A DNA stretch of 43,260 bases from Pilimelia sp. (GTDB lineage: Bacteria > Actinomycetota > Actinomycetes > Mycobacteriales > Micromonosporaceae). The position numbers and the translations under genes were made by a program. This document shows positions 9,501-23,121 of the stretch, piece by piece. Each line of letters starts with the position of its first letter. The first letter of the stretch is position 1. The DNA is taken from positions 1 to 43,260 of the forward strand of contig DATMJT010000312.1 in NCBI GenBank assembly GCA_035553735.1. Direction: 5' to 3'. The notes beneath the pieces were generated by a model. It did not search any database. It had not been told where the DNA came from and saw only the letters and a list, made by a program, of their open reading frames with translations.

Positions 9501-10492
9501 TCCTCGCCGAGCCGTCGGACCGAGTACGACCTCGCGAAGAGATCGTTGTCCGCGGGCAGTAAGCCGCGCTCCTCGGCGTAGAGCAGGAAGACCACTCGCA
9601 TGACCATGATCGTGGCGGCCCGATAGACGTCGTGGGCGCTCACCGTCGTCAGGCTCGATCGGCCGTGACGTTGGGCGCGGAGATCGTCCCAGCCGATGGC
9701 GCCGACGAGCATCTCCACCGCACGGCGGACCTGGTCGCCGAGGACCCCGGTGACCTCGGCCTGCCGGTCCAGGCCTTCCCGCACCAGAGCAGGCAGCGTC
9801 TCGTCGTCGGGAACGGCGAAGAACCGCCGTCGCTCCAGGAACGAGTAGAAGGCCCGGATCACCACCCGGTCCGCGGCCTCCGGCCACGTCGCGGTGTCGA
9901 ACACCGCCGTCGAGGTCGCGGATCCAGGCGGAGCGACCACGAGCGCGAACCACCGGCCGTCGGTGACCAATCCCAACGGGACCCGGTGATGGCGGCAGAG
10001 CCGGGCGACCCGGTCGACCGGGGTGGCCGGCCATGCGTCCGCGGTGGCACGGGCGGCGGGATGACGTCCGGGCTTCAAGGTCATGCCCAGCAGTCGCGGG
10101 ATGTCAGTGGTCGGGTCTACCAGGACGAAATCCGGCTCCACTGACGTGTGGTACTCCGGTATCACCTGTCGAAGCAGCCCCATGCCGTCGCGCCGCAGCA
10201 GGTCACCCCAGCCGCAGAAGCGGCGGAGCAGGAACTCGATCCACAGATCCGGGTCGACGTCGCCATCGGCGCGCGCCACCCGCATCATCGCCCACCACGC
10301 CGGATCGATGGATTCCAGGCTCGGCCACACCCGAGTAAGGACCGGCAGGGTGAGAAACGGTCCCGACACCGCCACCAGGGCCTGCCAGTCTTGGTGGTCT
10401 CGTTCCGGTTCGGTGCGGGAATGAACGCGACGGACCACGACAACCCCCTGGCGGTGCCTCACGGCACTAGGGACGCCCGGACGAGGAGCCAC
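6422..10492 (-). CDS. drmMI: Large Eco57I/PglX-type N6-adenine DNA methyltransferase, DrmMI-like
   Basis: 1356 aa. AdoMet motif I VADIAVGSGAFLTAACRYL. Catalytic motif IV FDAVVGNQPYLGG. Long N- and C-terminal non-catalytic regions, as in DISARM/BREX methylases. The start could be slightly downstream of 10492. Confidence 0.7.
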   Translation of the reverse strand: MAPRPGVPSAVRHRQGVVVVRRVHSRTEPERDHQDWQALVAVSGPFLTLPVLTRVWPSLESIDPAWWAMMRVARADGDVDPDLWIEFLLRRFCGWGDLLRRDGMGLLRQVIPEYHTSVEPDFVLVDPTTDIPRLLGMTLKPGRHPAARATADAWPATPVDRVARLCRHHRVPLGLVTDGRWFALVVAPPGSATSTAVFDTATWPEAADRVVIRAFYSFLERRRFFAVPDDETLPALVREGLDRQAEVTGVLGDQVRRAVEMLVGAIGWDDLRAQRHGRSSLTTVSAHDVYRAATIMVMRVVFLLYAEERGLLPADNDLFARSYSVRRLGEELERRRQESSEEDLEQSRSAWLRILALCDAIHCGVRHERLSLPTYDGPMFDPTTHPWLSQIWVDDRTVLHMLHAVQYVQLGRESRRLSFRALGVEQIGHVYEQLLAFDARRASDIVVALQWGRRGSTAEVRLAELERHDRPPRSAQERAAALARAYGEKATGSIRVLAKRLTPPQGPALVEALRLLYSATGGDRDLTDRLLPYVGVLRRDLRGLPMVIPEGGLYVTASATRANTGTLYTPADFAAEVASGALEDLVYRPGPAQTSDRSRWRVRSSAELLALRVADIAVGSGAFLTAACRYLARRLVEAWAAEGDARARELVERIERDGPPDDVEADPLTIRARRAVIQRCLFGADIDPMAVEIAKLSLWLISLDPAKPFTFLDHHLVAGDSLLGVTSLAQVEELHLDPAAGRALRDRWLGDPGRGVRELVAQVARIRRELADQADDTLPDVQWKDRRWREAQERSATARLIADLVVGAALHNAGQPDRRLNRDVVATAHLAHRITTGSPGAVDDARELADRWLSADLPAGDAPRTPLHWPLVFADVFEQGGFDAVVGNQPYLGGQKITGTLGLRYRELLVRWLGGGARGSADLVAYFVLRSHEVLTDEGVTGLIATNTLWQGDTRDVALARLLARGVTIRRATKSRPWPTPSAVLQVCQVKTAMRPASSDAVCELDGAAVSGVTASLDARSRVGGSPARLAANRATAFQGSIILGQGFTMEPEPARQLIENDPRNADVLFPYLNGKDLNSRPDCSASRWVINFHDWPQARAATYPDCYRVAERLVKPERAGNHRRSYRGCWWIYAERRPALVRALAKLDRVSVITLVSKIVMPVMVPTGQVFSHMLGVFATDDAAMLGLLSSAAHYWWAIERSSTLETRVRYTPSDVFETFARPELTGGLRRLGERLDTYRRELMLARQAGLTATYNLVHDKGAHDEDIAGLRRIHVDIDHEVMRAYGWTDLALDHDFHDTRQGTRFTVGPVARQEMLDRLLELNHARHAEEQRRDDRPRQLRLDEDGGDPPPSRR

Positions 10493-16298: not shown

Positions 16299-18317
16299 TC
16301 AATCGGCGAGGTCGTGCAGCACACCGCTCAGCTCAGCGAGTCGATTGTCGGCCCGGCGGCGCCGGTGCCTGACCCATTCCTTCCCTTCGGCGGCGATCCC
16401 TTCCAACACGTGCAGGGTCTGGACGAGGCCGGCTGCGTCCAGCGACAGGTCGGCGAGCCCGGAGGGATCCTCGTCAGGACGAATGCCCTCAGTGCTCGAC
16501 TCGATGACCTCGACCGAGATTGGGTCTCCGTTGAACAACGTCAGCTCGAAGGTCTGCCGCTGGGCCGCGATGCCGTCTATGCGGACCGCGGCTACGGCGT
16601 CGAAGCGGTAGTTCAGCCGCTGCGTCGTTCGGAAGGTCCCGGCCTGGAAATCCAGGTCGATGTTGACCTGCCGTACGCCGTCGTCGGTGAGCAGAAAGAG
16701 CAGCAGATGATACCGCGAATACCGCCACGGTCCCCGGGGGTATCGAGCTCGCTTGTAGGGGGCCGCCGGGGCCTCGATGAAGGCGTGTGCGATGACCTGG
16801 CTGGGCCGGAGCCGGGCCTGCCGCATCGCGCGGTCGACCAGGAGCTTCCGGTCACACTCCAGCCAGGTCGCCATCTCCGTGTCCGTTGGCTTGTCCGCCA
16901 GTTTGCGCTGCCAACGCTCGAACGCCTGCCAGCGCGCCGCCCACTGCTCGGCTCGCTCCGACTTCTCGGCGACCACCCTTCGGCGCTCGGCCACGAGGCG
17001 GAAGCCGGAGCGCACCGTGAGGACCGCGGATGTCGCCGCGAGTAGGATCCAGGCCGCGCCAGGCAGCGGCGAGTGCAGCACGGCCGCCGGTACCGCCCAG
17101 TAGCTCCCGACCGCGATCCCCGCCAGCCCACCGAGGATCAGCAGAGTCGTCACGACAGGTGTGCGGAGCCGGTGTCGGTACGCCGTCAACGTGTTGTACT
17201 CCCACCGCCGACGGACGTCGCCCACCAGGTAGCGGATCAACCAGGCGATCTGTTCCGCCTCGATGCGCTGTTCCCGGTAGATCTGAACCAGCTCATCGCG
17301 CAGGTGCCGGCGGATGCCGGCGGTCTGGGCGAGCCAGTAGGAGCGCTCCGTCCCTGCTGGTACGTACCGTCTGAAGTACTTGGTGAAGAGCCGGTCCACC
17401 GCCCTGGCGAAGCCACCTTCGGGCGCCTCGGCGCGTTGACGGACCGGCACGGTCAACTCTGCGTCCTTGGCCCGCAGCCGCATCCGACGAGAGTGCCGGT
17501 CCGCGCCGCCGACCGCGAAGGCGGCCAGGCCGACCAGGCAGGCGACGTAGCCGACGATCCCGGGTAAGGAGCCACGGCGGAGTAGCAATGCGCCGATATT
17601 GCCCGCCGCGAGCACAAATACCGGCGCGCCGATCACCATGCGTATCCACTCGCGCAGTGGGATCGACGCCGACGCGACCGGACGCACCCGTGGGCGCGCC
17701 GGTGTGGGATGGAAGAACTTCCAGATCCGTTCCTCTCTGCCCCCTTCCGCGCGGGCCGCTCGCGCCTGCTCGACGGAGCGGTGCCACATCTGGTCCACCA
17801 TGGGACCCTCAAGTAACACGCCGAGATGGTCGTAAATCTTGTCGCGCTGGTCGAGCGGCAGGGCGTCGACCTCCTTAAGGATTCGTTCCGTCTCGACGGT
17901 GTCCAAGGAGCCGAGCAGGCGAAGAACCACTCGGAGGCCACCGCCCCACTCGTCGGGTCGATCAAGCGCAGAGATGTCGGCACAGATGGCGGTGAGTCGG
18001 TCGAAATCTGCGCTCGCCAACTGTCGCAACGTCCGTCCGCTCAGCAGGGCGAGCAAGCGATGGAAGTGGACCTCGTTGGTCCGGTAGCCCTGCGCCGCGG
18101 CCTCCTCGATGAGCGCGTGGGCCCGCTCCCGCATGCGGCCGTCCAGATACCTGACGCCGATCCGGAACTTGTCGACGGGGGAGGCATCCGGCGGCAGCTC
18201 ATAGTGAACATCGAAGTGGATCGCCTGCGCCTGGATGACGTCGCCGATGATGTCCTGTGCCTGGACGCCGACCCGGGCATCCCCTTGTGCGATGTTGCTC
18301 GCGGTCGGCGTCGTCAC
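16299..18317 (-). CDS. Four-TM membrane protein of unknown function, partner of the upstream PNP-family enzyme
   Basis: 672 aa; no P-loop seen. N-terminal NIAQGDARVGVQAQDIIGDV motif, followed by a helical cytosolic region. Two TM hairpins (about aa 225-271 and 387-441). C-terminal beta-rich domain (YHLLLFLLTDDGVRQVNIDL...TFELTLFNGDPISVEV). GTGA overlap with the upstream gene. Confidence 0.7.
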   Translation of the reverse strand: MTTPTASNIAQGDARVGVQAQDIIGDVIQAQAIHFDVHYELPPDASPVDKFRIGVRYLDGRMRERAHALIEEAAAQGYRTNEVHFHRLLALLSGRTLRQLASADFDRLTAICADISALDRPDEWGGGLRVVLRLLGSLDTVETERILKEVDALPLDQRDKIYDHLGVLLEGPMVDQMWHRSVEQARAARAEGGREERIWKFFHPTPARPRVRPVASASIPLREWIRMVIGAPVFVLAAGNIGALLLRRGSLPGIVGYVACLVGLAAFAVGGADRHSRRMRLRAKDAELTVPVRQRAEAPEGGFARAVDRLFTKYFRRYVPAGTERSYWLAQTAGIRRHLRDELVQIYREQRIEAEQIAWLIRYLVGDVRRRWEYNTLTAYRHRLRTPVVTTLLILGGLAGIAVGSYWAVPAAVLHSPLPGAAWILLAATSAVLTVRSGFRLVAERRRVVAEKSERAEQWAARWQAFERWQRKLADKPTDTEMATWLECDRKLLVDRAMRQARLRPSQVIAHAFIEAPAAPYKRARYPRGPWRYSRYHLLLFLLTDDGVRQVNIDLDFQAGTFRTTQRLNYRFDAVAAVRIDGIAAQRQTFELTLFNGDPISVEVIESSTEGIRPDEDPSGLADLSLDAAGLVQTLHVLEGIAAEGKEWVRHRRRRADNRLAELSGVLHDLAD

Positions 18318-19468
18318 GCCAGCCCCTTGGCGACCGCGATAATCGTGGCCAGCCGCGCCGCCAGCTCCGTCACGTCAGCCAACAGGCCGCGCAGACGCTT
18401 CAGTGCCACCACCAGGGTGCTCCTGCTTCGTGGGGTGTCCTCTCGGACGCACTCCCGCGCCACGTCCAGCTCCGCAGTCGCGGCCGCGTACGTCTCCTCA
18501 TCGACTTGGCCGTCACCGCGAGCCCGCTTGAGATCCTCGCGCAGGTCCGCGATGGCGACTGCAAGGTCGACCGGCTCGTTGGGGGCGGAGCTGACGACGA
18601 CATTGCCGTGAATCTGTCCAGCCTGCACTCCGACCCGTGCGTTTCCGGTGGCGATGTTCCGGTTCGTCATGCTCATTGGCTCACTCCCGTTCGCTCGGAT
18701 CGGGCGGTTGGCACCCGTCGTGCTTTCGGTGATCAGTTCCTGCGCCAGGGCCACTGCGAAGGCTGCGGCGTGGGCTGCGGCTCGCGGCTGCCAGTTCGCT
18801 CCGTCGGTGGTCGCCTTGCTCCCGTCGGCGCGGTCGCTGATCCCGCGCACGACGATCACGGGAAGGGCACGGTTGAGGTGACCGGCCTGGGCCACGCCGG
18901 CAGCCTCCATCTCGATCGCCACAGCGTCGTTGTAGTGTTGGCGCACCCACCGCGCCTGGTCGGAGACGGCCGAGTCCTGTACGACCTCCCCGGCGGCGAT
19001 GGGCCCGAAGTGGACCCTCGGAACGGGGGCCGCGAGGAGCCCGCGACTCCACTCGTCGGACCGCGCTACGTGATGTGCGAGTTGGTCGGCCTCGTGGGCA
19101 ATCTCCCATGCCTTCGGTCGGGCCTTCAATCCGTCGTCCTCGCTGGTGCCCCCGTGGTACGCGTAAATCTTGCTGGCCACCACGACGTCTCCCAGCCGGA
19201 TGTTGGGCCACAGGCCTCCGGCTACGCCGACGAAGAGCGCAGCGGCGGGGGAGAACTCCGCCATCGCCCGCTCGGCCAGTACCGCTGCGGGATGGTTGCC
19301 CTTGCCCACCAGGGTGAGCGCCACCTGGCCACTGGTCCCTCCCACGCGGCCCACCTCGAAGCGGGTGCCGGCCGGGTGCCGGTGCAGCCGCAGGTCGGTC
19401 AGGTGCTTCCGGACGGCCTGGTACTCCAGATCCAGGGCCGTAAGGATCACGACAACGCCGGTGTTCAT
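18314..19468 (-). CDS. PNP_UDP_1 (MTA/SAH-nucleosidase-like) family nucleosidase with a C-terminal adaptor-like extension
   Basis: ILTALDLEYQAV, FVGVAGG, AIEMEAAGVAQ and VVRGISDRADG motifs of the purine nucleoside phosphorylase/nucleosidase fold (aa 1-245). An extra ~135 aa contains NIATGNARVGVQAGQIHGNVVV plus a helical tail. ATGA overlap with the upstream Nudix gene. Confidence 0.8.
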   Translation of the reverse strand: MNTGVVVILTALDLEYQAVRKHLTDLRLHRHPAGTRFEVGRVGGTSGQVALTLVGKGNHPAAVLAERAMAEFSPAAALFVGVAGGLWPNIRLGDVVVASKIYAYHGGTSEDDGLKARPKAWEIAHEADQLAHHVARSDEWSRGLLAAPVPRVHFGPIAAGEVVQDSAVSDQARWVRQHYNDAVAIEMEAAGVAQAGHLNRALPVIVVRGISDRADGSKATTDGANWQPRAAAHAAAFAVALAQELITESTTGANRPIRANGSEPMSMTNRNIATGNARVGVQAGQIHGNVVVSSAPNEPVDLAVAIADLREDLKRARGDGQVDEETYAAATAELDVARECVREDTPRSRSTLVVALKRLRGLLADVTELAARLATIIAVAKGLA

Positions 19469-20199
19469 GGTTCCGCCGTCTCCCTGTCTGTCGGGCTGGT
19501 GGGTCGGGTCATGGGCGGGTGCAGCGTCCGGTGCGGGCCAGCACGGAACAGCCGCGCGGGCCGACCGATGTCGCTCTTCCTGGTCGGACCTGCCGGCACG
19601 ATGAAGCCGTCGACGCTCTGCACCTTCCGGTAGAAGTTCCGCGGGTCGAGGCGCAGACCCCAGACCGCTTCATAGACGTGCTGGAGGTCGGAGATGGTGA
19701 AGGTCGGCCCGCAGAACGCCGTGGCCAGCGCGGTGTGCTCAAGCTTTCGCCGTGCGCGGTGCACGCCGTCGGCGACGATCCGGCGGTGGTCGAACGCCAG
19801 TCGTTCCCTTCCCGACAGAACCAGGTCGGTGGGCGTCCAGCACGCGTTCGAGGCGTCGGTCCCGGCGCTGGGTTCCGGAAGCCCGGGGGCGATCGCCAGG
19901 TAGGCAACGGACACCACGCGGCCTCTCGGATCCCGCTTCGGGGCGCCGTACACCCCCAGTTCCTCGAGGTGTAGGTGCTCTGCCGTCAGACCCGCCTCCT
20001 CGGTCAGCTCCCGGTGGGCCGCGGCCGGCAACTCCTCCTCGGCGTGGCTCAGAAAGCCGCCCGGAAGTGCCATCGCACCGCGGTACGGCTCGATGCCTCG
20101 CTCAACGAGCAGCACCTGCAACTGTCCCTCGCGGAGGGTGAGGATGACCAGATCCACCGCCAAGAGCACCGCCGGAGGGACCCACGAACCGTCGGACAC
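19465..20199 (-). CDS. NrtR-like protein: Nudix hydrolase domain fused to a C-terminal winged-helix domain
   Basis: Intact Nudix box GFLSHAEEELPAAAHRELTEEAGL. C-terminal FDHRRIVADGVHRARRKLEHTALATAF...FTISDLQHVYEAVWG, as in NrtR regulators. The start is uncertain: GTG 20199 is chosen from the expected domain start, but the ORF is open to ATG 20454. Confidence 0.75.
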   Translation of the reverse strand: MSDGSWVPPAVLLAVDLVILTLREGQLQVLLVERGIEPYRGAMALPGGFLSHAEEELPAAAHRELTEEAGLTAEHLHLEELGVYGAPKRDPRGRVVSVAYLAIAPGLPEPSAGTDASNACWTPTDLVLSGRERLAFDHRRIVADGVHRARRKLEHTALATAFCGPTFTISDLQHVYEAVWGLRLDPRNFYRKVQSVDGFIVPAGPTRKSDIGRPARLFRAGPHRTLHPPMTRPTSPTDRETAEP

Positions 20200-20593
20200 A
20201 GGGGCACCGTACCCATATTGTCGTCCTGACAGGAAGTGCTTCCGGTGTCGGCTTTCGGCAGGTTGCCGCCCCTCGTCGGCTGACAGCACCTCGCCGAGAT
20301 CGTCCGTGTGGCGAACTCGTGCGTGGCCCTCCCCGAGGGCGCCGGCGCCGCCGCGTGCACCGTCGCGGGCGCGCCGCGGGTCCGTGTGTTGGTGGCGACC
20401 GAGGGCCGTGGCTGGTGCCGCAGATCCTCGCTCTCGCCGCGGTGCCAGCTCCATAGTGCTGCGTCGCCGGAGCGGCTCAGGGGGTGGCTCAGGCGGTGCG
20501 GTGGCCGGCAGCCCGGCCCCCGCTCGGCGCGGGTCGTGCAGTCGTCGCGGTGCCGGCGGACCGGCCCAAGGGCGGCGGACGGAGGAAACCGTC

Positions 20594-20643: not shown

Positions 20644-20718
20644 AACAGATAACTGTCGTAAACCCGATCGGCACCACCCGCTCCACCCCATCACCACCAC
20701 CCACCCCTAGGAGCCTTC

Positions 20719-23121
20719 GTGAGACGCAAACTCGCGTCCTTCGGCGTCGTGGCCCTGACCACGGGTGCCGCACTCGCGGTCGGCTTCGGCACGACCGAAG
20801 CCAAGACCGTGCCGGACAGTCAACCGGCGGCCGCGGCCGCCGACCCCCAGCTGCTGGCCGCCACCGTGGCGGACCGGGCCGCCGACAGCGGCCTGGACGC
20901 CCTGGCGAAGGGGCCCGAGGACAGCTTCGTCCGCCAGGCCGTGGTTCCCGGCGCCGGCGGGCTCAACTACGTCCGCTACCACCGCACCTACCGCGGGCTG
21001 CCGGTCGTCGGCGGCGACGCCGTCGTCACGGTGGACGACACCGGCAACATCCGCGACACCACCGCCGCCGAGTACGGCCGGGTGGCGCTGAGGTCGGTGA
21101 CCCCGCGGATCACCGCGGCGCGGGCGACGGCGACCGCCAAGGCCCAGCTCAAGGTCGTCGAGCACGCCGCGGAGCCGCAGCTGGTGGTCTACGCGCTGAC
21201 CAAGACCCCGCGGCTGGCCTGGGAGGCGCTGGTCGAGGGCGCCAAGGTGGACGACCACGCCGACCATGACCACGGCCACGGCGCCGGCCTGGTGCCCAGC
21301 CGCCTGCACGTCTTCGTGGATGCGCTGACCGGCAAGGTGCTGGACACCTCCGACGACGTCAAGCACGCCACCGGCACCGGGTACTACCTCGGCCGGGTCA
21401 CCTTCGACACGTCGCGCTCCGGGTCCAACTACGTGATGACCGACCCGAACCGCAGTGGCCTGCGCTGCGGCGGACAGGACGGCCAGTCGTACACCAACAC
21501 CTCCGACACCTGGGGCAACGGGTCGGGCACCGACCTGCGCACCGCCTGCGTCGACGCGTTCTACGCCGCCCAGAAGACCTGGGACATGCTCGGTGAGTGG
21601 CTGAACCGCCGCGGCTACAACGGCAACGGCGGCGGCCCGCCGGCGCGCGTCGGACTGAACCAGGTCAACGCGTTCTGGAACGGCTCGTACACCAACTTCG
21701 GCAGGTCGCAGGACGGGCAGCGCCAGGTCACCCCGATCGACGTGGTGGCGCACGAGTACGGCCACGCCATCGACCAGTACACCGGCGGCGCGGCCCGCGA
21801 GGCGGGCCTCGGCGAGGCCACCGGCGACATCTTCGGCGCCCTGGCCGAGCACTACATCAACAACCCGAACGACCCGCCGGACTACACCGTCGGCGAGGAG
21901 GTCAACCTGGTCGGCCGGGGGCCGATCCGGAACATGTACAACCCCTCGCTGGTGAACAACGACCCGAACTGCTGGTCGTCGGCCGTGCCCGGCATGGAGG
22001 TGCACAAGGCGGCCGGTCCGCTGAACCACTGGTTCTACCTGCTGGCCGAGGGCTCCAACCCCGGCGGCGGCAAGCCGAGCAGCCCGACGTGCAACAACTC
22101 CACGGTGGTCGGCATCGGCATCCAGAAGGCCGGCAAGATCTTCATGGGCGCGATGAACAAGAAGACCTCCGGCTGGACCCACGCCCGCTACCGGGTCGCC
22201 ACGCTGCAGTCGGCGGTCGAGCTGTACGGCGCGGCCTCCACGGAGTGCAACACGGTCAAGGCCGCGTGGAACGCGATCAGCTTCCCGGCGCAGTCGGGCG
22301 AGCCGCAGTGCCAGAGCGCCCCGTCGGACAACTTCTCGATCTCGGTCAGCCCGACCGCGGGCAGCGTCCAGCAGGGACAGTCGGTGACCACCACGGTCTC
22401 GACCCGGACCACGCAGGGCAACGCCCAGACCGTCACCCTGAGCGCGTCCGGCCTGCCGGCCGGCGTGACGGCGAGCTTCAACCCGCCGTCGGTGACCTCC
22501 GGTGGCTCCAGCACGCTGACGCTGACCGCGTCGGCGAGCGCCACGGTCGGGGCCAAGGCGATCACGATCACGGGTACGGCGCCGTCGGGTAGCCACACCG
22601 CCACCTACTCGGTGACCGTGACCTCGCGGGACACCGACCCGGTGGACGACTTCTCGGTGTCGGTGTCGCCGGGTTCGGCCACGGTGGAGCCGGGCGGCTC
22701 GGCGACGGCGTCGGTGGCGACGGCCACCACGTCGGGCAACGCGCAGGCGCTGACCCTGAGCGTCTCGGGCGCGCCCACGGGCGTGACCGCCTCGATCGAC
22801 CCCTCGTCGGTCACCTCGGGCGGCTCCGCGACGCTGTCGGTGCAGGTCGCCTCCACGGTGGCGCGGGGCAGCTACCCGCTGACGGTCACCGCGTCCGGCA
22901 CCTCCGGCACCAAGACCGCCACCTTCACGGTGACGGTCCAGGGCGACGACCCGCCGGGCGGCTGCAACGGCGTGCCGGCCTGGAGCGCCACCACGGCGTA
23001 CTCCCCGGGCGCCAAGGTGTCGCACAACGGGCGGCTGTGGAACTCCACCTGGTACTCCACGGGCGCCGAACCCGGTGCGCCGCAGTCGTGGGCCGTGTGG
23101 GCTGACGCCGGAGCCTGCTGA
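20719..23121 (+). CDS. Secreted M4 (thermolysin-like) metallopeptidase with two Ig-like repeats and a C-terminal chitin/carbohydrate-binding module
   Basis: Signal peptide. HEYGH zinc motif and GEATGDIFG. Two ~100-aa repeats (NFSISVSP.../DFSVSVSP...). C-terminal AWSATTAYSPGAKVSHNGRLWNSTWYSTG (CBM5/12-like). AGGAG RBS 5 nt before GTG 20719. Confidence 0.85.
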   Translation: MRRKLASFGVVALTTGAALAVGFGTTEAKTVPDSQPAAAAADPQLLAATVADRAADSGLDALAKGPEDSFVRQAVVPGAGGLNYVRYHRTYRGLPVVGGDAVVTVDDTGNIRDTTAAEYGRVALRSVTPRITAARATATAKAQLKVVEHAAEPQLVVYALTKTPRLAWEALVEGAKVDDHADHDHGHGAGLVPSRLHVFVDALTGKVLDTSDDVKHATGTGYYLGRVTFDTSRSGSNYVMTDPNRSGLRCGGQDGQSYTNTSDTWGNGSGTDLRTACVDAFYAAQKTWDMLGEWLNRRGYNGNGGGPPARVGLNQVNAFWNGSYTNFGRSQDGQRQVTPIDVVAHEYGHAIDQYTGGAAREAGLGEATGDIFGALAEHYINNPNDPPDYTVGEEVNLVGRGPIRNMYNPSLVNNDPNCWSSAVPGMEVHKAAGPLNHWFYLLAEGSNPGGGKPSSPTCNNSTVVGIGIQKAGKIFMGAMNKKTSGWTHARYRVATLQSAVELYGAASTECNTVKAAWNAISFPAQSGEPQCQSAPSDNFSISVSPTAGSVQQGQSVTTTVSTRTTQGNAQTVTLSASGLPAGVTASFNPPSVTSGGSSTLTLTASASATVGAKAITITGTAPSGSHTATYSVTVTSRDTDPVDDFSVSVSPGSATVEPGGSATASVATATTSGNAQALTLSVSGAPTGVTASIDPSSVTSGGSATLSVQVASTVARGSYPLTVTASGTSGTKTATFTVTVQGDDPPGGCNGVPAWSATTAYSPGAKVSHNGRLWNSTWYSTGAEPGAPQSWAVWADAGAC

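Follow-up and report, generated by a model that had tools for sequence, protein, structure and literature searches.

Three genes, g1, g2 and g3, lie on the minus strand at positions 16299-20199 of the window, the whole 43,260-nucleotide stretch of Pilimelia sp. DNA analysed here. They are chained by stop/start overlaps, an ATGA joining g1 to g2 (ccATGAac, 19468-19465) and a GTGA joining g2 to g3 (gcGTGAcg, 18317-18314); both overlaps, first reported in the initial annotation, are located in the sequence. The GC3 of the trio is 0.83-0.84 versus 0.92-0.96 for the adjoining genes, and AIPR and RM genes are found 6 kb away. The initial annotation could match the trio to no named system, and the defence, Pfam and NCBIfam libraries likewise give it no name.

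The g1 gene (19465..20199, minus strand) encodes a 244-aa protein that combines a Nudix hydrolase-like domain (nt ~19771-20151; Pfam NUDIX, 6e-17) with an NrtR-type winged-helix DNA-binding domain (nt ~19543-19710; Pfam NrtR_WHD, 2.3e-14). The NrtR-like winged helix noticed at the outset is thereby upheld. The Nudix box (E-x7-RELxEE-x-G-L), taken at first to be intact, is so with respect to RELxEE, which is present in 42 of 43 g1 homologues, but its spacing is G-x6-E in place of the canonical G-x5-E. A start at ATG 20454 was rejected; homologues, promoter and operator all fix the start at GTG 20199. A 21-bp palindrome upstream of g1, the putative operator TTCCTGTCAGGACGACAATAT (20215..20235, minus strand), overlaps the -35 element and spacer of the operon promoter; its GT-N7-AC core agrees with the 21-bp NrtR palindrome described by Rodionov (2008, PMC2330246). 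The pattern YTGTC-N5-GACAR occurs once in the whole window (0.10 expected). Among the 36 trio loci with the pattern, 35 have a single copy and L014 has three, directly upstream of g1 in each; the operator core begins at -32/-33 relative to the start codon in nearly all loci. A putative -10 hexamer, TACGGT (20206..20211, minus strand), conforms to TANNNT; in 42 of 42 loci this pattern starts at position -12 or -13 relative to the start codon of g1, and the geometry of operator and promoter is kept across these 42 loci. Since the -10 element ends 6 nt upstream of the GTG, the mRNA is expected to be leaderless. A generic sigma-70 scan found nothing; we infer promoter function for the -10 and -35 elements. 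The conserved operator speaks for the regulator in the "Nudix regulator or antidote" originally proposed, and g1 is predicted to be a self-repressing regulator of the trio. Like NrtR proteins, g1 has its palindrome upstream of its own operon; unlike them, it falls below the NCBIfam equivalog cut-off (NtrR model: 7.7e-32, 111 bits, against 400 bits), stands at the head of genes that are not NAD-metabolism genes, keeps the RELxEE catalytic helix, and is sometimes fused to the nucleosidase (the Nudix-WHD-PNP proteins P0207 and P0223).

The N-terminal domain of g2 (aa 1-245; 18734..19468, minus strand) has the fold of 5'-methylthioadenosine/S-adenosylhomocysteine nucleosidases (MTANs). It matches Pfam PNP_UDP_1 at 4.8e-32, its best Foldseek matches are MTANs (TM 0.8), and the MTAN catalytic residues E12, E174, R193, S196 and D197 correspond in the alignment to E15, E188, R208, S211 and D212 of g2. 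The catalytically complete-looking nucleosidase fold of the initial annotation is thus borne out at all five positions, and the domain is predicted to be an adenine-releasing N-ribosyl hydrolase. That g2 is a plain housekeeping nucleosidase (MtnN/Pfs) with incidental neighbours is the label that RefSeq and source annotations attach to its homologues, and its closest PDB and NCBIfam similarities, together with the retained catalytic residues, agree with this label. However, g2 scores below both MtnN equivalog cut-offs of NCBIfam (95.1 vs 169 bits; 53.4 vs 73.8 bits) and carries an extra module in common with TIR and SARP proteins; it is strictly linked to g1 and g3 by overlapping codons while the flanks vary, has two copies within a single genome (P0183 and P0196), is also found on a plasmid, and has left decayed relics. 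The housekeeping assignment is accordingly very improbable and close to refuted; the finding that the initial annotation had said would overturn its reading, a sole MtnN/Pfs orthologue with conserved synteny, is not what these comparisons return. The PADLOC model for Cap17 also matches a housekeeping MTAN (53 against 74 bits) and is thus no guide to whether g2 belongs to the Cap17 clade.

The remainder of g2, first described as an extra C-terminal module of ~135 aa, is indeed present and measures ~139 aa. It comprises a short motif, TNRNIATGNARVGVQAGQIHGNVVVS (aa ~267-292; 18593..18670, minus strand), with a G-φ-Q-φ-G core inside a disordered linker (AF2 pLDDT ~25 over aa 252-298), and a C-terminal four-helix bundle (aa 301-384; 18317..18568, minus strand), with helices modelled at 302-318, 324-343, 346-362 and 367-383 (pLDDT 80-90), the last of them hydrophobic. 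Motif and bundle together constitute an adaptor module. No Pfam or PDB relative of the bundle was found; a Trypco2 identity was dropped, with 3 of 18 members reaching E<1 (best E 0.005-0.009).

The third gene, g3 (16299..18317, minus strand), encodes a 672-aa protein that is hydrophobic in four stretches, at 225-247, 249-273, 384-411 and 417-435, and lacks a Walker A/P-loop, in agreement with the initial description of two TM hairpins and no NTPase motif. Its AF2 model (pLDDT 80.7, pTM 0.76) shows, after a disordered stretch (residues 1-36), a helical-repeat N-domain (aa 47-201), TM hairpin 1 (221-288), a helical domain (303-383), TM hairpin 2 (384-440), a long helix (441-500) and a β (PH-like) domain (501-605); the C-terminal helices bear an invariant motif, LEGIAAEGKEW. 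Searches of Pfam, NCBIfam, PADLOC and PDB sequences gave no match to g3, and Foldseek none at E<0.03.

Within the disordered N-terminus of g3 lies the counterpart of the g2 motif, TASNIAQGDARVGVQAQDIIGDVIQA (aa 5-30; 18228..18305, minus strand). The two share N-φ-A-x-G-x-A-x-V-G-V-Q-A-G, and profile-profile comparison (hhalign) relates them at 96% probability, E 3.6e-9. The sharing of a motif between g3 and the tail of g2 was thus rightly noticed at first, but the g2 copy sits in the linker before the bundle, not in the tail. Residues N271, A273, V279, Q282, A283 and G288 of g2 are invariant among 27 homologues; motif identity is 0.489 in cognate pairs vs 0.409 in non-cognate pairs, a value equalled in 0 of 10,000 permutations, and lineage-specific changes are paired (VGFQA/VGFQA, VGIQA/VGIQA, AIQ/AIQ, VGxQG/VGxQG, AQIG/AQIG). 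Conservation and covariation over 42 loci put the likeness far beyond chance. The Pfam RHIM model does not match the motif; judged by its sequence, the motif may be called RHIM-like, and it co-evolves within pairs.

The adaptor is also found alone or fused to TIR (TIR_2), cyclase-like or SARP (BTAD) domains: 219 adaptor representatives include ~70 stand-alone, ~28 PNP, 10 cyclase-like, 3 BTAD and 2 TIR forms. Seven stand-alone or fused contexts were examined, and in all of them the adaptor gene is followed by a g3 homologue (E-values include 2e-96, 6e-63, 4e-73 and 1.5e-90); seen from g3, the preceding gene always has an adaptor at its end. Interpreted from these sequences, the adaptor would couple g3 to interchangeable outputs, namely PNP nucleosidase, TIR, cyclase-like and SARP DNA-binding domains. 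Of the "membrane-anchored sensor or constant component" first suggested, it is the constant component that these contexts sustain: g3 behaves as a constant membrane partner beside variable effectors. The explanation that we favour, with a confidence somewhat above even, is that the trio represents one subtype within a so far undescribed family of sensor-adaptor-output systems of actinomycetes, in which g3 is constant, outputs are swappable and activation is motif-driven.

The roles may be reversed, a reading that we consider unlikely: g3 would be the executioner, permeabilising the membrane or forming a channel with its Gly/Ala-rich TM hairpins, and the upstream protein its trigger or regulator. 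PNP, TIR or cyclase domains would then make a nucleotide-derived signal or sense an insult, with the adaptor tethering them to g3 or keeping it inactive. Where TIR, PNP or cyclase domains generate a signal, the effector downstream is commonly a TM protein (Kaur 2020, PMC7159879), and Thoeris has TM effectors as well; the extracytoplasmic loops of g3 are short and its TM helices rich in small residues; and the linked regulators, NrtR and the Crp regulator adjoining the cyclase-like variant, bind nucleotides. The most diverse version of the family consists of a ~120-aa adaptor and g3 without an enzymatic output, so that g3 must have a function of its own, in line with this reading. Against it, SARP fusions are outputs and not signal generators, a large constant protein with the motif at its N-terminus looks like the receptor of known motif pairs, and g3 has no structural similarity to known pore formers by Foldseek.

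The order g1-g2-g3 is kept in ~40 of 47 loci. The loci come from Micromonosporaceae, Streptosporangiaceae, Streptomonospora, Prauserella and Actinopolymorpha (five actinomycete families), and the trio is also on the Streptomyces plasmid pLBRS. Its flanks are unrelated, 142 neighbours representing 168 Pfam families with Phage_integrase the commonest, and decayed relics occur (L042, L045-47). The co-conservation that the initial annotation had proposed examining is thus evident: the trio is strictly linked as a unit. Enrichment in defence islands, proposed along with it, gives a mixed result, in that L058 (neighbours GmrSD, a methyltransferase, a kinase-helicase and a HerA-like gene) and L050 (an EACC1-caspase system) are in clear defence islands, and the window, with its AIPR and RM genes, belongs with them, but several trio loci (L048, L049) lie amid ordinary metabolic genes, which counts against the favoured explanation.

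These observations bear on a non-immune alternative, improbable to about the same degree as the executioner reading, in which the family would serve filamentous actinomycetes as a general signal-transduction module for membrane stress or development and, in the PNP subtype, an NrtR-controlled nucleosidase tunes adenine-nucleoside, NAD or ADPR-related pools on a membrane cue. Many loci outside defence islands, occurrence limited to families with largely mycelial members, the presence among the outputs of a transcription activator (BTAD/SARP) and, beside a Crp regulator, of a possible cyclase, and the control of metabolism by known NrtR proteins (PMC2330246) are all in keeping with it. The module is, however, patchy, mobile, plasmid-borne, duplicated and often decayed; its commonest neighbours are integrases; no NAD genes were found among the 142 neighbours; TIR and PNP outputs and the L050 and L058 neighbours are typical of conflict systems; and evolution is fast in g3 and the adaptor, whose homologues are 34-65% identical vs 63-84% in the enzyme domain. 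The SARP-output and output-less variants suit signalling as well as immunity, a second point counting against the favoured explanation; they also make the family a general sensor-output module, not one specifically for nucleotide depletion.

Several known systems come close to the trio, which we take for an undescribed form of effector-adaptor conflict system. In NLR-associated amyloid pairs (BASS, a Bell effector with an NLR; fungal PP/HRAM/PUASM; E. coli Bab/Agp), as in the trio, adjacent genes share the same ~20-25-residue motif, one copy on the effector and the other at the extreme N-terminus of a larger partner, and motifs are closer within a pair than to those of other pairs. Also in common are the G-φ-Q-φ-G core, which the trio motif shares with RHIM, PP and BASS3, a lack of order in monomer models of the motif, and occurrence in filamentous bacteria. 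BASS/RHIM-like pairs are known in bacteria (10.1101/2020.01.06.895854), and in fungal PUASM a PNP_UDP effector is under such control (10.1101/2022.03.16.484565). In contrast, g3 is not an NLR/STAND protein, having no P-loop, four TM helices and a fold without relatives; the trio motif does not match Pfam RHIM; and effectors of the trio family include a SARP transcription factor. The g2 motif is internal, with a conserved, folded four-helix bundle after it, unlike that of known amyloid signalling effectors, and this too counts against the favoured explanation. The EAD-coupled conflict systems of multicellular bacteria (Kaur, Burroughs, Iyer, Aravind 2020/2021) resemble the trio family in having a constant core, a homotypic adaptor and variable effectors (PNPase, TIR, nucleotide cyclase) and in occurring in actinomycetes; an EACC1-caspase system, which is one of them, adjoins one family variant; the trio family differs in its new four-TM core, in lacking an NTPase switch (MoxR/vWA, STAND, GTPase) or peptidase, and in an adaptor that matches no Pfam EAD/Trypco model. 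PNP domains serve as ATP-nucleosidase immune effectors (bioRxiv 10.1101/2023.01.24.525353). Cap17 (CBASS) and DtcC (Detocs) share with g2 the PNP_UDP_1 fold with its catalytic Asp, tethered to a sensing or regulatory module, and the predicted outcome, in which adenine is released and adenine nucleotides are depleted; activation of g2 would come through a membrane partner and a short motif, not a cyclic nucleotide or phosphotransfer.

On the favoured sensor-adaptor-output explanation, g1 would repress the operon until an ADP-ribose-like ligand frees the promoter, and with RELxEE intact it may also hydrolyse that ligand. The membrane protein g3 would sense a membrane-proximal or cytoplasmic trigger and then self-associate, and its N-terminal motifs, once clustered, would seed joint β-sheet assembly with the motif of g2; the proximity so created would switch on the output domain. 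Dimers or oligomers are the working form of MTAN-type nucleosidases, TIR NADases, class III cyclases and SARP activators alike. In the trio, the output of g2 would free adenine from an adenine nucleotide or nucleoside, either ATP/dATP, as with Cap17 and DtcC, or an NAD- or ADPR-derived compound, and depletion of adenine nucleotides would lead to growth arrest of the abortive-infection type.

The three minus-strand genes at 16299-20199 of the window, encoding a Nudix-winged-helix regulator (g1), a PNP/MTAN-fold nucleosidase (g2) and a 672-residue membrane protein (g3), are chained by the stop/start overlaps that the initial annotation had read from the sequence: ATGA at 19465-19468 and GTGA at 18314-18317. 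The second of the encoded proteins matches Pfam PNP_UDP_1, and its AlphaFold2 model, built with 27 homologues, comprises an MTAN fold (aa 1-252), a disordered stretch that includes the motif shared with g3 (aa 252-298, pLDDT about 25) and a confidently modeled four-helix bundle (aa 302-383), an 84-aa module that comes after the motif. Thus the shared motif is not located at the tail of g2, where it had originally been placed, but between the enzyme domain and the C-terminal bundle; motif and bundle together are called the adaptor in what follows. All Foldseek and PDB-profile matches of g2 are MTA/SAH or futalosine nucleosidases (TM about 0.8, ~22% identity), and the catalytic set is indeed complete, with E15, E188, R208, S211 and D212 aligning with Glu12, Glu174, Arg193, Ser196 and Asp197 of MTAN. 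From these structural matches and the intact catalytic residues, adenine-type N-ribosyl hydrolase chemistry is to be expected of g2.

The same matches might make g2 the housekeeping MtnN of its genome, a reading that is essentially refuted. Its scores lie under the MtnN equivalog cut-offs (95.1 vs 169 bits for NF004079, 53.4 vs 73.8 bits for TIGR01704); at 384 aa, with an adaptor, it is unlike the single-domain ~230-aa housekeeping enzyme; and, as the survey below documents, it belongs to a mobile and sometimes duplicated unit with variable flanks, rather than being a sole MtnN/Pfs orthologue in conserved synteny. The expectation that defense-system models would return nothing for the trio holds for g1 and g3, which match no family in PADLOC-DB v2; g2 does match PDLC00759 ('PN-superfamily effector', 74 bits). 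That match is rejected as the sign of a defense clade such as that of the ATP nucleosidases Cap17 and DtcC, because a housekeeping MTAN, that of V. cholerae, matches the same model (53 bits) and the model is therefore non-discriminating.

A survey that scanned one genome per species yielded 47 loci. The three genes are co-conserved: the order Nudix-PNP-g3 is kept in about 40 of the 47, with genes overlapping or abutting, in Micromonosporaceae, Streptosporangiaceae, Streptomonospora, Prauserella and Actinopolymorpha. The window is high-GC actinomycete DNA, and the closest relatives of the trio's proteins come from Micromonospora; relative to the window's proteins, identity declines from the enzymatic parts toward the adaptor and g3 (g1 65-79%, PNP domain 63-84%, C-terminal module of g2 37-67%, g3 34-65%). 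Neither of the genes that flank the trio in the window, one RmlD-like and one for an M4 peptidase, is conserved at other loci, and when the nearest two genes on either side are pooled across loci they represent 168 Pfam families, of which Phage_integrase is commonest (6/142). Four loci are relics, one with an internal deletion (L042) and three with a truncated g3 (L045-47), one Micromonospora genome carries two copies (P0183 and P0196), and a complete trio resides on the 191-kb linear, mobilizable plasmid pLBRS of Streptomyces sp. M54 (L059; NZ_CP059899.1, 30006-33889). The GC3 of the window's trio is 0.83-0.84, vs 0.92-0.96 for the adjacent genes. The trio is an accessory, mobile unit, not a housekeeping operon. 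Flanking direct repeats and tRNA genes were sought around it and not found, and the Rfam gathering score is reached nowhere in the window. The pLBRS copy has an HNH endonuclease, a ParB-N protein, a PAPS-reductase-family protein and a restriction endonuclease as neighbors.

The presence of a short motif common to g2 and the N-terminus of g3 is confirmed by profile-profile comparison (96% probability, E 3.6e-9), in an alignment that extends past the motif into the first helix. In g2 homologues the conserved motif reads T-N-x-N-I-A-T-G-N-A-R-V-G-V-Q-A-G-Q-I-x-G-x-V; g3 homologues start with T-N-V-A-x-G-x-A-x-V-G-V-Q-A-x-x-V-H-G-D-V. Both contain the G-φ-Q-φ-G core that is common to the RHIM, fungal PP and bacterial BASS3 amyloid signaling motifs (10.1101/2020.01.06.895854), as VGVQAG in the g2 consensus and as VGVQA followed by G or Q in g3, and the motif has no match to Pfam RHIM. 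Over 42 loci, motif identity is 0.489 between cognate g2/g3 partners vs 0.409 between non-cognate ones, a value reached in 0 of 10,000 permutations, in a statistic that shared ancestry inflates. Co-evolution of the motif is further supported by the same joint change in both partners in several independent lineages: VGFQA/VGFQA (g2/g3) in the L030-L044 clade, VGIQA/VGIQA in Streptomonospora and L058, AIQ/AIQ in Prauserella, VGxQG/VGxQG in Couchioplanes and AQIG/AQIG in L057.

The description of g3 as a protein of four hydrophobic segments in two TM hairpins, lacking a Walker A motif and any Pfam NTPase domain, stands. Its AlphaFold2 model (pLDDT 80.7, pTM 0.76) places the motif in a disordered N-terminus (aa 1-36), followed by a helical-repeat domain (aa 47-201), the first TM hairpin (aa 221-288), a helical domain (aa 303-383), the second hairpin with a long helix that reaches aa ~500, a PH-like, β-rich domain (aa 501-605) and C-terminal helices bearing the invariant motif LEGIAAEGKEW. 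Sequence libraries and structure searches are silent on it: there is no match in Pfam, NCBIfam or PADLOC, a Pfam scan of 41 homologues gives sporadic DUF7269 and TM-type noise only, Foldseek against the PDB reaches a best E of 0.03 with TM<0.2, and PDB sequence profiles of g3, like those of the adaptor, return designed or coiled-coil noise only. The window's g3 has an insertion of ~10 aa just after the motif (18197-18226, aa ~31-40; QAQDIIGDV-I-QAQAIHFDV) that is absent from 40/40 aligned homologues. It resembles another half-copy of the motif, and the underlying DNA showed no tandem repeat.

The adaptor and g3 extend well beyond the nucleosidase. A profile of the g2 C-terminal module (motif plus bundle), compared with 1.84 billion representative proteins, finds 219 at E<1e-3. 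Among the best 150 of these 219, about 70 are stand-alone adaptors (115-145 aa), about 28 are PNP fusions, about 10 are fusions to an uncharacterized ~200-aa domain, about 3 are BTAD/SARP fusions and about 2 are TIR_2 fusions. Every retrievable adaptor context has a g3 homologue downstream, usually with overlapping codons: 665 aa (35% identity, E 2e-96) next to TIR protein P0262 (L050), 694 aa (E 4e-73) next to TIR protein P0304 (L056), 710 aa (E 6e-63) next to cyclase-like P0293 (L053) and 684 aa (E 1.5e-90) next to stand-alone P0267 (L058). The gene downstream of SARP protein P0356 (L055) begins with a g3-type motif; g3 is interrupted by a frameshift next to stand-alone P0283 (L054), and next to stand-alone P0312 (L057) only its N-terminal part is present, where the 929-bp contig ends. 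The ~200-aa N-terminal domain (VDIERSAGRGD...LHAGDVH; L053:1195-2256; P0287, P0293, P0296, P0310, P0368) belongs to no Pfam family and is weakly like a class III cyclase (PDB 3mr7, E 0.021), whence its tentative label 'cyclase-like, weak'. A profile built from divergent g3 proteins also places this variant in a Mycobacteriales MAG; that profile returned 2 proteins only, probably because of a bias of the word index to the first sequence. A transcription factor often adjoins the adaptor/g3 pair: the NrtR-Nudix regulator in the PNP subtype, HTH_31 proteins in the TIR subtype and a Crp-type cNMP-binding regulator in the cyclase-like subtype (L053). g3 is, in sum, a constant membrane protein coupled to variable outputs through a co-evolving motif and strict adjacency.

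A defense-island setting, about which the initial annotation had asked, is clear at some loci and not at others. Around the stand-alone-adaptor/g3 pair of L058 (1-14354) there is a dense island comprising a 2064-aa kinase-DEAD helicase-MZB protein, an N6-methyltransferase, GmrSD_N, a 1651-aa HerA/DUF87-like protein and an HTH_31-DUF5753/DUF397 pair; the TIR-subtype locus L050 carries an EACC1-caspase-WD40 system; and in the window a separate defense-type cluster (2589-10492, GC3 0.85-0.89) lies 6-14 kb from the trio, with a UvrD-like helicase (2589-4742, plus strand), an AIPR abortive-infection protein (4753-6522, plus) and a 1356-aa Eco57I/MmeI-like methylase-restriction fusion (6422-10492, minus). 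Such a setting is not seen at L048 and L049, PADLOC-DB v2 has no family for the g3 homologues or for the TIR, cyclase-like, SARP and stand-alone adaptor proteins, and a tblastn search for adaptor mimics encoded by phages found none among 50,697 phage records. That the family is a non-immune module for membrane-stress or developmental signaling is judged unlikely. Divergent from the trio is the gene of a secreted, thermolysin-like M4 peptidase that carries a CBM_5_12 domain at its C-terminus (20719-23121, plus strand); the 772-aa ORF opposite it (20707-23025, minus) is dismissed as a high-GC artifact because the GC3 of 0.96 falls on the plus frame. Between 33000 and 35000 the G+C content is 79-85%, and both strands are crowded with long ORFs that overlap.

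The start codon of the regulator g1 is GTG 20199, which gives a protein of 244 aa, in agreement with its homologues. It has the NrtR-like architecture, with an N-terminal Nudix-like domain (Pfam NUDIX, 62.4 bits; cut-off 21.1) and a C-terminal NrtR winged helix (NrtR_WHD, 53.7 bits; cut-off 27), and scores 110.7 bits with NCBIfam NF050029, under the cut-off of 400, so that its similarity to NrtR is not at equivalog level. Its Nudix box, first taken to be intact, keeps RELxEE in 42/43 homologues; the spacing, G-x6-E, departs from the canonical G-x5-E (E-x7-RELxEE-x-GL). Two single proteins of 625-626 aa, P0207 and P0223, combine NUDIX, NrtR winged helix and PNP_UDP_1, and are either g1-g2 fusions or joined via loss of the overlapping stop codon.

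Upstream of g1 in the window lies the 21-bp palindromic operator TTCCTGTCAGGACGACAATAT (20215-20235), with a GT-N7-AC core, and a palindrome TT(C/T)(C/T)TGTC-N5-GACAA(A/T)AA is found upstream of g1 in every locus. Exact matches to the core pattern occur in 36 loci at a fixed position relative to g1; all 36 have one copy immediately upstream of that gene, which is the single copy per ~22-kb locus in 35 of them, and L014 has two extra copies. The 43-kb window has 1 occurrence vs 0.1 expected. The window's operator agrees with the NrtR consensus, a 21-bp palindrome with GT-N7-AC core (Rodionov 2008, PMC2330246), and the PNP subtype sits under an NrtR-type operator. A TANNNT hexamer starts 12-13 nt ahead of the g1 start codon in 42/42 loci and the palindrome core starts at -32 or -33 in nearly all; because of these conserved positions we infer a leaderless transcript with the operator covering the -35 and spacer. 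This layout is the classic geometry of autorepression, with g1 as presumed repressor and a ligand as presumed effector. In characterized NrtRs the ligand is ADP-ribose. The control of NAD biosynthesis and salvage that is typical of NrtR is not in evidence: there are no NAD-metabolism genes among the 142 flanking genes of the trio loci. That g2-g3 are nrtX-nrtY (Rodionov 2008) is unlikely because nrtX-nrtY are present in Proteus and Hahella too. About 10 nt upstream of the operator is a second conserved element, GAAAGCCGACAC (20245-20256, minus strand), common to most Micromonospora loci and replaced by an inverted GTGTCG...CGACAC in the L030-L044 clade; it may be a second regulatory site.

Like the amyloid motif pairs (BASS/RHIM/PP/PUASM), the trio has the same short co-evolving motif on an effector and on the N-terminus of its partner. 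In those pairs an NLR/STAND NTPase acts as partner and the effector ends in the motif, whereas g3 is not an NTPase and the g2 motif precedes the bundle. EAD-coupled conflict systems (Kaur et al.) likewise link a constant core to variable effectors through a homotypic adaptor, but their core is an NTPase (MoxR-vWA, STAND, GTPase) and the trio family has none; no known EAD model matches the adaptor, and an identity of the g2 C-terminus with Trypco2 is rejected (3/18 members at E<1, best E 0.005-0.009). The 'EAD principle' and the amyloid-motif pairs are described for NLR/STAND and MoxR-vWA systems of multicellular bacteria and fungi (PMC7159879, PMC8195603, Dyrka 2020); the logic of the trio family matches them, minus the defining NTPase core. 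A precedent for amyloid control comes from fungi, in PNP_UDP effectors that bear PUASM motifs (10.1101/2022.03.16.484565), from which the trio differs in its internal g2 motif and non-NLR partner, and adenine release as predicted for g2 would be analogous to the ATP nucleosidases Cap17 and DtcC (10.1101/2023.01.24.525353). Identity with Thoeris type XI (actinobacterial scaffold) is rejected, its effector being an unrelated HIT hydrolase. The adaptor and g3 belong to no described family in the libraries searched, and their pairing is undescribed in the Aravind, Saupe/Dyrka, ATP-nucleosidase, TIR/Thoeris and NrtR-regulon papers, an incomplete library that leaves room for an earlier description elsewhere.

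The account that we favor, by a modest margin over even odds, makes g3 a sensor or scaffold: upon activation its N-terminal motifs would cluster, recruit the adaptor protein by templating its matching motif, and turn on the fused output domains by induced proximity. All four outputs would fit this mode of activation: MTAN-type enzymes form dimers that share active sites, self-association is required by TIR NADases, class III cyclases work only as dimers, and SARP activators bind repeats as oligomers. In the window's trio this would free adenine from an adenine nucleotide or nucleoside and so arrest growth, with g1 keeping the operon off as long as no ADPR-like ligand is present. The opposite assignment, with g3 as membrane executioner and the enzymes as signal generators or triggers, seems rather improbable. 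A more specific form of the sensor account, which we regard as doubtful though worth stating, is that g3 represents an NTPase-free, membrane-embedded receptor family signaling via prion-like templating of a RHIM-type motif. On this view the RHIM-to-MLKL, PP-HELL and BASS-Bell cell-death executioners would have their counterpart in bacteria in the stand-alone adaptor, and the PNP, TIR, cyclase-like and SARP domains would be add-on outputs. If so, necroptosis-like amyloid signaling would extend past NLRs to a membrane sensor, with the NrtR-like g1 adding an ADP-ribose-gated transcriptional layer.

The module is tractable, with two or three genes and naturally swappable outputs (nucleosidase, TIR, SARP), and is therefore suited to testing activation by induced proximity. 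Hundreds of actinomycete genes now labeled housekeeping MTA/SAH nucleosidases should be relabeled. NADase immune effectors produce ADP-ribose, and an operator of NrtR type points to a possible link from this product to induction of a second effector. To our knowledge, the couplings of sensor to effector described so far run through soluble NLR/STAND, MoxR-vWA and GTPase switches; if the sensor account is true, the family would add a new class of sensor, membrane-bound and without an NTPase, coupled to cell-suicide or signaling effectors, in which a RHIM-like co-evolving motif works outside the NLR context.
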